The translations under genes and the position numbers were made by a program. The notes under the pieces were generated by a model that was given only the letters and a program-made list of their open reading frames with translations, had not been told where the DNA came from and did not search any database. Below, in pieces: positions 15,542 to 18,475 of a stretch of DNA of 64,000 nt. How positions within the stretch are numbered: position 1 is the stretch's first letter; every line of letters begins with the position of its first letter. The DNA comes from Dehalococcoidia bacterium. Its GTDB lineage: Bacteria; Chloroflexota; Dehalococcoidia; Lucifugimonadales; QGNO01. The DNA lies in contig CBDFLI010000002.1 in assembly GCA_965249115.1 (NCBI GenBank), positions 2,106,636 through 2,170,635 on the forward strand. The letters are read 5' to 3'.

Positions 15542-15617
15542 TTCATTGGAGATGCGAATTCCACTGGTCATATTGAGGAATAACATATCGGGGTCGAGAT
15601 GGAGTTGGACCCGGCCA

Positions 15618-15762
15618 CACCTTATTCCCCGTGACTACCTCCGAGCCCATCCCGACACGGCAAGGGAGTACCTGGTCCTCAGGAGGAGTTCACCGCAGCT
15701 TCCGGCGACTACGTTGATGCCTACGTCGAGGCCAAGACACCCCTCATACGGTCTGTGGAGGC
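15618..15762 (+). pseudogene. GrpB/UPF0157 family C-terminal remnant with frameshift (copy 2)
   Basis: HLIPRDYLRAHPDTAREYLVLR, then after a one-base shift in AGGAGGAG: EFTAASGDYVDAYVEAKTPLIRSVEA. Matches the GrpB tail pattern HLxFRDYLRxHP...AYxxAK. Confidence 0.7.
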
Positions 15763-15899: not shown

Positions 15900-16365
15900 C
15901 TATGCGGCTGTCTGAGCTCCAACGACGCGGGCAATGGCCTCGCGCAATTGATAAGGGCTAACCGGTTTGCTGACCACCAGATCTACTGATTCGGGGATGT
16001 CCCCGGTAAGCGGCATGAGGTGACCAAATCCGGTCAACATGATGATAGGCGTTTTGGGCGCACGTGCTTTGATATGCGCTGCGAGTTCGTCGCCATTCAT
16101 CCCTGGCATCGCCCGATCTATTACCACCAAGTCGAATTGGTCCGTCTCGAAAGTCGCCAAGGCGGAGTCTCCAGTGCTTGCTACATTAATTTCATGGCCA
16201 TCTGCCCTGAGACAATCTGCCACAATCTTGAGAACCACTGGTTCATCGTCGACAGCGAGGATTCGCAGGGGGCCCGTCCTGACTGCTTGAGAAGCGTTCC
16301 CGTTCGCCGAGGATAGTGCGCCAGTAGAATCTATCGGAAGCTGGATGAAGAACGTGGTGCGGTGG
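15900..16365 (-). pseudogene. C-terminal remnant of a hybrid histidine kinase (last HATPase strand + intact receiver)
   Basis: TTFFIQLP linker then ILAVDDEP...DLVVIDRAMPGMNG...IMLTG...SKP; the phospho-Asp, Thr and Lys are present. It may still be translated as a stand-alone receiver. Confidence 0.7.
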
Positions 16366-16797
16366 ACCGTTGCTACATCGTTAGTATCTGTCCTGTTCAT
16401 AGTGGCGGTCTCCTCAGTTTTCGCCACCACTCACCTGTGGGAGAAAACTGTGGATGGCGTAGACTTGGACGCTCAGGCAAGCATACAGGACAATGGAAAT
16501 CGTTCCTGGGCTGGGGCCGCAGCTTCACATGCAAGTGAGGACATCGCCTCAATTGGGGCACATGTTAAGGGAATAGAGAAATGTTTCCTCTCGACCTACA
16601 CCCGTTTTAATCCAAGTTGGACATGGGACGCTGATTCGCAATGGGCTGTGTCGAACGGGAACGGCTCTTACTCAAGCACTGCAGGATGCCTTGGTTTCCA
16701 GCTCCTACAATCTAAAGGTAGTCATGATTTCTATGATGGAGGTCATGGAATTAACGAGTCACCGTCTACATTAAACGCGATAGTACTCGCCCCATGA
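16345..16797 (+). CDS. Hypothetical secreted protein
   Basis: Sec-type signal peptide ending VFA; S/G/N/W-rich mature part with two Cys; followed by a strong terminator. Confidence 0.65.
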   Translation: MKNVVRWTVATSLVSVLFIVAVSSVFATTHLWEKTVDGVDLDAQASIQDNGNRSWAGAAASHASEDIASIGAHVKGIEKCFLSTYTRFNPSWTWDADSQWAVSNGNGSYSSTAGCLGFQLLQSKGSHDFYDGGHGINESPSTLNAIVLAP

Positions 16798-16807
16798 TGT
16801 GATTGCC

Positions 16808-16848
16808 AAAGGCGTCCCTTTGCGTAGGCAGAGGGGCGCCTTTTTTTT
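16808..16848 (+). terminator. Intrinsic terminator
   Basis: GGCGTCCCTTTGC-GTAG-GCAGAGGGGCGCC stem followed by T8. Confidence 0.88.
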
Positions 16849-17104: not shown

Positions 17105-17848
17105 ATGAGAGTCTCGCTCAACCTGATCTTCATCGCAGGTATATTTGCAACGTTGCTACTGGCCGCTTGTGCCCAGGTCGAGCCGACTGCCACACCTGCC
17201 CCGGCTGTTACGGGTATCATAGGACCCAAGTCCTTGCCTGGGCTCAAGACCGCGACTTTCGGTCCCGATGCAGAGTTACTCGTATACGCTCGCACACGTA
17301 GGTCCGAGTATCTAGAACTTCCGGGATGGGCGGCAGTACCTCCAAGTGGAAGATTGAACCCCCCGGTGACTATCACTGAAGCCTGGAGTCTCGTGGATGG
17401 AACGGGGTTGGTTTCTCGGGCACATGGGATTGTTAGCACACCTGATGGGGGCGTGATCCAAGAGAGTTTCTACGAGACCGGGGGACCGCTGGTCACCTTT
17501 ACTTCTGAGGGTACAGAATCATACCGTCCGCCAGGGGACATTCTGAGAGTGATTCTCGACCGGGGCCAGGACATTGAATCGGCGATCTTGGACCCGGACT
17601 GGATTGAGGTGTCCGATTCTACGACCGGCGGTATCAGAGTCTTTGAGCTTCATCGAGCTCCAACTGAATTCATTACCATTGGGACGATACTAGTCGCAGG
17701 GTACGACGCCACTGGCGCTATTGTGCAGACCACAATTACTGAGGCCGAATCCGGAATGCTGATAGAACGTATGACAATTGAAGTCTTTGACGTCAGCGTC
17801 TCATCAGGTCTCGATCCAAAGATATGGGAGGCAGTTGCTGAGTGGTGA
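17105..17848 (+). CDS. Hypothetical lipoprotein
   Basis: Lipobox LLLAAC, then a P/T/A-rich linker (EPTATPAP); TATAAT 6 nt before the ATG suggests a leaderless mRNA. Confidence 0.8.
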   Translation: MRVSLNLIFIAGIFATLLLAACAQVEPTATPAPAVTGIIGPKSLPGLKTATFGPDAELLVYARTRRSEYLELPGWAAVPPSGRLNPPVTITEAWSLVDGTGLVSRAHGIVSTPDGGVIQESFYETGGPLVTFTSEGTESYRPPGDILRVILDRGQDIESAILDPDWIEVSDSTTGGIRVFELHRAPTEFITIGTILVAGYDATGAIVQTTITEAESGMLIERMTIEVFDVSVSSGLDPKIWEAVAEW

Positions 17849-18013
17849 TGGAGTTGGACATGCTGCCACACCGACAACCAAAGTTATCAGTGCTCCGAAT
17901 GCTATTCAAATGGTCACTCTTGTAATGGCAGTTGTACAGGTGTCATCTGCTCAAGTTATACTGGGCTTGGCACATGCGGTGGTGGTGGACCAAATGGTCC
18001 TAGCAGTGGATAG
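17849..18013 (+). other. Startless Cys-rich reading frame in phase with the lipoprotein TGA
   Basis: WSWTCCHTDNQSYQCSECYSNGHSCNGSCTGVICSSYTGLGTCGGGGPNGPSSG*; 8 Cys in 54 codons. Confidence 0.5.
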
Positions 18014-18059
18014 CGGCGGGGTGAATAATTCGAATGAATACAGCGATGGCAACGCTGGC

Positions 18060-18246
18060 CAGGCATCATCGCTGTACCGTGTGCCTTGAGAAGGATGACG
18101 TTATTATCCAAGCTCGAATGGAGGAATAGCGAAATTCCTGTGGCGAGCACCAGCGCAACGACAAAGGTGGTGGCCGAGTACCAGAATAAGAGTCGATCCT
18201 TCAGGTGTCCCAAATTAGCCTCCCAAGAACGACGCTGTTTATTCAA
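18060..18246 (-). pseudogene. N-terminal membrane-anchor remnant, probably of a sensor kinase
   Basis: LLFWYSATTFVVALVLATGISLFLHSSLDNNVILLKAHGTAMM (one TM helix), after which the frame loses coherence. Confidence 0.4.
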
Positions 18247-18307: not shown

Positions 18308-18475
18308 TCACGCAGCGGGGGCCTTCTTCATCAGCCTGCTGTAGATGAGCCATGATACGGCGCCGGCCTTGGGGGCGCTCCATTTCAGGCCCATGAGTGT
18401 CACCAGGAGGACCAGTAGCGGCGTCGAGGCCAAAAGCCCGTTGGCGAGGTTCAGCGTAGGGCCGGGTGATTCCAC
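18308..18475 (-). pseudogene. Truncated L-lactate permease-like N-terminus
   Basis: RBS AGGAGG + GTG; TLNLANGLLASTPLLVLLVTLMGLKWSAPKAGAVSWLI resembles the LctP N-terminus but stops after 55 aa. Confidence 0.5.

Follow-up and report, generated by a model that had tools for sequence, protein, structure and literature searches.

A cysteine-rich reading frame behind a lipoprotein stop codon in a Dehalococcoidia bacterium is probably a stranded gene fragment

The stretch of Dehalococcoidia DNA considered here (assembly GCA_965249115.1, contig CBDFLI010000002.1, forward-strand positions 2,106,636 to 2,170,635; the whole 64,000 nucleotides are referred to as the window) contains a lipoprotein gene whose reading frame remains open for 54 Cys-rich codons past its TGA stop codon. 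The question raised by this locus is whether the TGA is recoded, is a recent nonsense mutation, or is the true end of the gene with a relic of some other gene behind it, three options that had been put forward in an earlier note made from the sequence alone. The reading favoured here, with a probability of roughly three in four, is that the frame is an orphan, a 5'-truncated piece of a gene of the twin-arginine translocation (Tat)-signal family with the motif WSWTCC (the WSWTCC family), which was recently stranded by a rearrangement, lies in frame with the lipoprotein by chance and is not translated beyond background leakage at the UGA. The two features in question are as follows.

17105 to 17848, forward strand: lipoprotein gene of 247 amino acids (aa) with a signal peptide and the lipobox LLLAAC, ending at a native TGA stop codon (17846-17848); the homologues P0002, P0003 and P0004 end at most one residue from this stop.
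17849 to 18013, forward strand: apparent 5'-truncated fragment of a Tat-signal WSWTCC Cys-rich gene, 54 codons plus TAG, aligning to positions 69-112 of the 113 positions of the family profile.

The lipoprotein open reading frame (ORF) begins with an ATG at 17105 and its C-terminus reads ..EAVAEW-TGA, after which the same frame continues as WSWTCCHTDNQSYQCSECYSNGHSCNGSCTGVICSSYTGLGTCGGGGPNGPSSG (17849-18010) to the TAG codon at 18011-18013. As the earlier note had described, this frame encodes eight Cys residues and has no start codon of its own; it is also rich in Ser, Gly and Thr and lacks Lys and Arg, ATG, GTG and TTG are all absent from it, and a single ATC is the only near-start codon. 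The length of the frame is ordinary, as an in-frame extension of at least 54 codons follows 19% of the ORFs of at least 150 aa in this genome (2.7 Mb, 58% GC). The Cys content is not matched by chance: at 14.8%, the Cys density ranks second among the 523 extensions of at least 40 codons in this genome, and at least eight Cys residues occur in only 0.05% of the stop-free 54-codon windows of the six-frame genome translation. The DNA around the fragment, which had been termed low-GC intergenic, has a GC content of 49% and is rich in G and T.

The identity of the tail is provided by homology. When 1.84 billion representative proteins were searched exhaustively with phmmer, the tail had a sole match, a protein of 118 aa (P0006) with 52% identity over 46 residues, and the alignment is gapless from WSWTCC onward. 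In P0006, a twin-arginine signal (..SRRRFLAKAG..) precedes a domain of 75 residues that contains 20 Cys. Against composition-preserving shuffles, the similarity has a z-score of 15.8 to P0006 and of 12.3 to a second member encoded on a metagenome contig (L027). A hidden Markov model built from these two proteins only identified the tail as the single significant piece of the six-frame genome translation (E = 1.4e-9). An alignment-based search extended the family to about 20 members with lengths of 111-126 aa, each of them metagenomic and annotated as hypothetical, and the resulting alignment (A3) has 20 rows. The profile of 19 intact members matches the tail with an E-value of 8.1e-11 over positions 69-112 of 113, and the next-best piece of the six-frame genome translation has an E-value of 0.06.

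The members of the family share a layout of a signal (..SRRRFL..) followed by CC.LC.SP..CC..C-x-WSWTCC..RC.E.YC..C..C..V.CS..G.C. All ten invariant positions of the 20-row alignment (W, S, W, T, C, C, C, E, C and C) fall in the C-terminal half, and the tail keeps all ten together with four near-invariant ones, so that the pattern WSWTCC ... C.E.Y ... C...C..V..S ... C is present in it. In a leave-one-out profile the tail scores about 45 bits, and the C-terminal halves of intact members score 13.6-60.6 bits. The twin-arginine signal and the N-terminal CC.LC..CC block are absent from the frame, and profile positions 1-68 have no match anywhere in the six-frame genome translation. The tail is thus regarded as a fragment and not as a complete member, since the N-terminal signal and Cys block are absent. 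Judged by these alignments, the tail is a genuine and undecayed piece of the WSWTCC family that covers only its last 40%. The earlier note's suggestion of a C-terminal relic of a Cys-rich secreted or ribosomally made and post-translationally modified peptide (RiPP)-like product is therefore supported in its relic part by homology to the C-terminal half of a Tat-signal family, and its caution that the tail might have no homologues is answered by the same family. No leader, start codon or nearby modifying enzyme, as would be looked for with a RiPP precursor, is found in the window.

The family was reached only through the exhaustive HMMER run and the alignment-based search. The tail has no match in Pfam, NCBIfam or PHROGs, a word-indexed search with the lipoprotein plus tail as query returned its own window protein only, a word-indexed search with P0006 returned P0006 and one frameshifted variant only, and a pattern scan of genome contigs for the Cys-rich family recovered nothing. 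The variant (P0007, 97 aa, on a Logan contig of 1729 nt) is identical to P0006 over its first 55 residues and then diverges; it represents the P0006 gene in another contig, either frameshifted or misassembled.

The lipoprotein itself appears to be complete. The exhaustive HMMER/phmmer search with the lipoprotein plus tail as query found three homologues, and none of the three carries a tail. The nearest relatives of the lipoprotein are from metagenome-assembled genomes (MAGs) of Dehalococcoidia/Chloroflexi. Their C-termini read ..IWEPVLD*, ..VWKPVIAK* and ..VWEPTLK* compared with ..IWEAVAEW* in the window, and each lies at most one residue from the stop. Where the earlier note would have looked for a Trp or Cys codon in homologues in place of the TGA, the three homologues instead end within one residue of it, as the note had also allowed they might. 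The lipoprotein has no match in Pfam, NCBIfam or PHROGs, and a pattern scan of genome contigs for its family recovered only two loci that were already known.

The organism can decode UGA as selenocysteine. The selenocysteine genes selA, selB, selC and selD, whose presence the earlier note had left to be established, are all found: tRNA-Sec is encoded at C2:1306789, and selB (362 bits), selA (578 bits) and selD (388 bits) all score above their curated cut-offs. The selD gene (C2:67243-68166, outside the window) encodes a selenoprotein itself, with an in-frame TGA (..LAHCAG-U-AAKFSP..) followed by a hairpin of -27.7 kcal/mol over 60 nt. A second in-frame TGA was observed at C2:34125 in an ORF for a DUF3179 protein (C2:33705-34838, also outside the window), which is full-length (Pfam positions 1-292 of 292, E = 6e-91); here the TGA replaces the first Cys of a WCPLC motif (W-U-P-L-C) and is followed by a hairpin of -27.0 kcal/mol over 60 nt. 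This ORF is probably an unannotated selenoprotein gene that ordinary gene calling would split. A genome-wide scan for in-frame TGA codons with hairpins was noisy, and only selD and the DUF3179 gene were accepted as controls, against which a selenocysteine insertion sequence (SECIS) was judged from folding energy.

By this test no SECIS-like stem-loop lies directly 3' of the TGA at 17846. The fold of the 60 nt that follow it, at -9.1 kcal/mol, is poorer than those of dinucleotide shuffles (z = +0.7 to +1.5) and weaker than at 82% of 665 ordinary TGA-terminated ORFs, or at the 71st percentile after correction for GC content. The earlier note had pointed to a weak hairpin of GTTGG with CCGAC; both elements exist (17853-57 and 17871-75), but the minimum-energy fold leaves them unused. 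Features of translational read-through, namely an extension kept in homologues and a leaky stop context, are likewise not seen, as the homologues have no extension and TGA-T, present at 25% of the ordinary TGA stops in this genome, is no rarer than the other contexts. In the Cys-rich family, the column aligned with the TGA holds V, T, I, R or C and never selenocysteine or a stop codon. Since the fold is weak and the lipoprotein homologues end at the stop, neither recoding nor a recent nonsense mutation is supported, and the Cys-rich frame is most likely not a selenocysteine or read-through extension. Of the three options in the earlier note the relic is thus the one that stands; recoding is disfavoured even though the selenocysteine machinery proved to be present, and the nonsense change is at odds with homologues that stop here and with a tail that comes from an unrelated gene family.

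The native setting of the Cys-rich gene, in each of the five WSWTCC-type loci examined, is the final position of a cassette. The order of the cassette is a protein of 147-170 aa, MauE (PF07291, E = 5e-29), a redoxin with MauD as its top NCBIfam match, a polytopic membrane protein of 265-333 aa and the Cys-rich protein; the 147-170-aa protein is upstream in four of the five loci, with L024 starting at MauE, and the membrane protein of L038 is called as two ORFs (196 and 186 aa). The metagenome contigs that bear the cassette are L024, L027 and L038-L041, and in L038 and L039 the intact Cys-rich cassette has transposases on its flanks. Among 400 other genomes sampled from the same phylum (Chloroflexota), nine hold divergent Tat-signal Cys-rich relatives, and MauE and/or the redoxin lies within 1.5 kb in five of the seven divergent loci retrieved. 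When the partner proteins of L024 were used as tblastn queries, no homologue of MauE or of the 265-aa membrane protein was found in the genome to which the window belongs, and only distant, generic thioredoxin-fold matches were returned. The fragment is considered an orphan because this genome lacks MauE, the membrane protein and the rest of the family gene. A proposal that the fragment is a silent cassette for gene conversion was rejected, as the genome has no intact paralogue.

The Cys-rich protein does not belong to a Pfam or NCBIfam family, P0006 and L027 both having no Pfam match, and a profile search of the PDB returned only chance matches to lysozyme (E = 0.035) and no methylamine dehydrogenase (MADH) light chain. 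AlphaFold modelling from 20 sequences predicts a small beta-rich domain with a predicted local distance difference test (pLDDT) score of 70 overall and 77-90 in the mature part; an earlier model from three sequences was useless (pLDDT 41). Foldseek comparison of the prediction with the PDB gave no neighbour with E < 1, the best being about 1. On the sequences collected here, the WSWTCC family is a rare and unnamed group of putatively Tat-exported, Cys-rich mini-proteins with no solved or named relative.

The surroundings of the fragment contain further features that bear on how it came to lie behind the lipoprotein gene, listed here in order of position.

15598 to 15621, forward strand: left copy, reading GATGGAGTTGGAC(N3)GCCACACC, of an imperfect direct repeat whose exact 13-mer is found nowhere in the genome but in the two copies.
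15900 to 16430, reverse strand: C-terminal remnant of a hybrid histidine kinase (last HATPase strand and receiver), identified by Pfam Response_reg; the body of about 570 aa is missing.
16345 to 16797, forward strand: p150, an exported protein of 150 aa and partner of the lipoprotein, with homologues located by tblastn in L003, L025 and L026.
16808 to 16843, forward strand: hairpin and T-run resembling an intrinsic terminator after p150, from a terminator scan.
17847 to 17872, forward strand: right copy of the imperfect direct repeat, GATGGAGTTGGAC(N5)GCCACACC, spanning the lipoprotein stop and the first eight codons of the fragment.
18039 to 18076, no strand assigned: 10-bp inverted repeat (TACAGCGATG / CATCGCTGTA) 3' of the fragment, the inner part of which is terminator-like on the minus strand.

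The gene p150 and the lipoprotein gene form a conserved pair that is known only from a few MAGs of Dehalococcoidia/Chloroflexi. In all three related loci (L003, L025 and L026) the p150 homologue begins 33-60 nt after the lipoprotein stop. The order of the pair is permuted in the window, because p150 is downstream in all three relatives and upstream here, and the fragment sits where the partner gene should begin. The p150 product has a single chance-level match in NCBIfam (E = 0.5) and no significant match in Pfam, NCBIfam or PHROGs. An rve-type transposase adjoins the pair in one of the relatives (G039, locus L003). The terminator-like hairpin after p150 implies a transcript of its own for the lipoprotein gene, and a search of Rfam at E <= 1 over 16.7-18.8 kb returned only a sub-threshold P11 match on this terminator.

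The kinase remnant aligns solely to residues 574-709 or so of the hybrid-kinase open frames of relatives, which are 780-820 aa in length, and no further piece of the kinase is found within 14.5-19.5 kb. The GC content at third codon positions (GC3) is 0.39 in the tail, which is below that of 99.8% of the genes, 0.49 in p150 and 0.54 in the lipoprotein gene, compared with a genome mean of 0.69, and the stretch of low GC content extends from about 14.6 to 18.2 kb. By composition and gene arrangement, the block around the fragment looks foreign and rearranged. Two minus-strand ORFs with hydrophobic N-termini and no family matches (18308-18475, 55 aa, and 17956-18246, 96 aa) occupy the otherwise gene-free 0.7 kb from the fragment to a TetR gene, and they may be additional gene remnants; the 96-aa ORF runs across the fragment's 3' end.

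In the 2.7-Mb genome, the exact 13-mer GATGGAGTTGGAC is present at two sites only, on the same strand and 2.25 kb apart, and the repeats built on it (24-26 nt) bracket the kinase remnant, p150 and the lipoprotein gene. A second segment of about 1.9 kb in the window (47.5-49.4 kb) is flanked by 29-nt repeats at 79% identity. The repeat at the junction may be a scar of recombination or an attachment (att)-like scar of a scale similar to that of the repeats at 47.5-49.4 kb.

Taken with the features above, the following history would account for the fragment. The source gene would have encoded a small, Tat-exported, disulfide-rich protein and would natively have been the last gene of a MauE/MauD-like redoxin and membrane-protein cassette. 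A rearrangement within a horizontally acquired block of low GC3 would then have cut this gene at its WSWTCC core and left the 3' part directly behind the native TGA of an unrelated lipoprotein gene, in the same frame by a one-in-three chance. The fragment would be transcribed, if at all, as 3' untranslated region. It most likely is not translated except by background leakage at the UGA and has no function; non-translation is probable because the fragment lacks a start codon, a signal peptide, the N-terminal Cys block and maturation partners. The truncation is probably recent because the fragment scores like an intact member. Several observations weigh against this history. The fragment begins at the first base after the lipoprotein stop and in its frame, and the organism is able to decode UGA as selenocysteine. 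The leave-one-out score of the tail exceeds that of six of the 19 intact members, and the fragment displays no decay, with zero internal stops or frameshifts and every invariant residue kept. This undecayed state fits either a recent event or continuing constraint.

Continuing constraint would be expected if the half-domain were still expressed and useful, either through near-cognate read-through of the UGA on the exported lipoprotein or from an unrecognised start. Such expression would explain the lack of decay, with all invariant residues kept and an intact-like profile score; the tail lies in the frame of the lipoprotein from the first base after its stop, and the Sec-type signal of the lipoprotein would carry a fused tail out of the cell. 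It is nevertheless improbable: the frame has no start codon, the TGA-T context is found at 25% of ordinary TGA stops, the GC3 of 0.39 is not host-adapted, the tail is absent from all lipoprotein homologues, and the fragment has none of the N-terminal Cys block, Tat signal and MauE/MauD-like partners found with every WSWTCC-type member examined. Insertion of selenocysteine at the UGA at 17846, to yield a lipoprotein with a selenocysteine followed by a Cys-rich redox or metal-binding tail, is very improbable even in a genome with tRNA-Sec, selA, selB and a selenocysteine-containing selD. The tail is in frame and Cys-rich, and, with a near-invariant family Cys two residues before WSW, a selenocysteine one residue before WSW is chemically not absurd, but the fold is weaker than its shuffles and than 82% of ordinary TGA stops where verified selenocysteine sites reach about -27 kcal/mol, the lipoprotein homologues terminate at this stop, and the aligned family position never holds selenocysteine or a stop but only V, T, I, R or C. 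That a recent TGG/TGY-to-TGA mutation cut a lipoprotein that originally bore the Cys-rich domain is hardly credible. The frames are continuous and TGA is one base from TGG, TGC and TGT, but the three homologues of three end within one residue and are followed by p150 and not by a Cys-rich domain, and the 19 intact Cys-rich members all possess an N-terminal half and a Tat signal of their own. Equally little credence is due to a chance open frame in composition-skewed intergenic DNA. Post-stop frames of at least 54 codons do follow 19% of ORFs and the local DNA is rich in G and T, yet the specific homology (E = 8e-11, shuffle z = 12-16), to which the Cys density (2/523) may be added, already refutes it.

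A different kind of alternative refines the relic reading without contradicting it. A small mobile cassette could have integrated into the Cys-rich gene and displaced its 3' part, which would be the fragment, with the repeats as attL/attR-like sites derived from the conserved WSWTCC-coding core, and this is unlikely. In its favour, the 13-mer is unique in the genome to the two sites and on the same strand, GCCACACC follows 3-5 nt later in each, and the right copy falls exactly on the junction; a comparable segment of about 1.9 kb with 29-nt repeats lies in the same window, and in L038 and L039 the intact Cys-rich cassettes have transposases beside them. A simple insertion would, however, place the 5' half of the Cys-rich gene to the left of the left repeat, and it is not found there; the idea that it lies there, or beneath the lipoprotein gene's 3' end in a different frame, was rejected as neither place holds it. 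The block also contains no integrase, the similarity is confined to about 26 nt, three of 100 whole-window shuffles equalled the score of the junction 60-mer, and no relative with an empty site was found: queries with the receiver remnant and a 139-aa membrane protein against 20-40 relatives gave paralogue-level matches or none for an empty site or orthologous locus. A broader and more doubtful proposal is that the fragment and the repeat are the footprint of small integrase-less mobile cassettes in Dehalococcoidia that insert into short conserved coding motifs. The targets may then be the WSWTCC-coding core here and a comM motif elsewhere in the window, and such cassettes may carry pieces of former target genes, with the lipoprotein/p150 pair as cargo.

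The WSWTCC family can be compared with several known systems. In Streptomyces, mauE/mauD clusters with precursors of at least eight Cys residues have been reported by decRiPPter as candidate families of RiPPs (Kloosterman et al. 2020, PMC7794033). The intact WSWTCC relatives similarly are small Cys-rich proteins beside mauE/mauD-like genes with no methylamine dehydrogenase genes nearby, though the decRiPPter clusters are predictions only and the likeness is drawn from their description and not from sequence comparison. Because of its Tat signal and predicted beta-rich fold, the WSWTCC family resembles small exported proteins more than leader-core peptides; the Tat signal is clear, and the folded beta-rich domain is a model prediction. 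The window, unlike those clusters, holds a fragment only and none of the cluster. MauA, the small subunit of methylamine dehydrogenase, which has MauE and MauD as accessory proteins (van der Palen et al. 1997, cited in PMC7794033), offers another parallel, as a small and very Cys-rich protein with a Tat-type signal beside MauE and a MauD-like thioredoxin-fold protein. Unlike MauA, P0006 and L027 have no Pfam match, no MADH light chain is matched in the PDB and the best Foldseek E-value is about 1, and no large subunit or MauG is seen in the family loci; the resemblance to MauA/MauE/MauD is thus one of context and not of sequence.

The locus itself shares with bacterial selenoprotein genes, in which a UGA followed by a SECIS hairpin is read by SelB, an in-frame UGA, an open Cys-rich frame and the full selenocysteine machinery. 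It differs from them in that no SECIS-like hairpin is found, no homologue has Cys or selenocysteine at the position, and the upstream protein family ends there. A closer likeness is to gene fragments at island edges, for example displaced 3' ends of integration targets: the fragment is 5'-truncated, partnerless and of atypical composition, a second truncated gene lies next to it, and its junction carries a short direct repeat. In contrast to such relics, neither an integrase nor an empty site nor the other half of the target gene was found, so that an origin by insertion is tentative.

An orphan 5'-truncated fragment is ordinary in kind. Its instructive side is that, in an organism that uses selenocysteine, a TGA followed by an open Cys-rich frame mimics an unannotated selenoprotein or a read-through product, and here the frame would be a stranded gene fragment. 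The locus documents what appears to be a recent rearrangement in a Dehalococcoidia accessory region, and following the fragment to its family has provided 19 members and a profile for a type of cassette that had been flagged before but never characterised.

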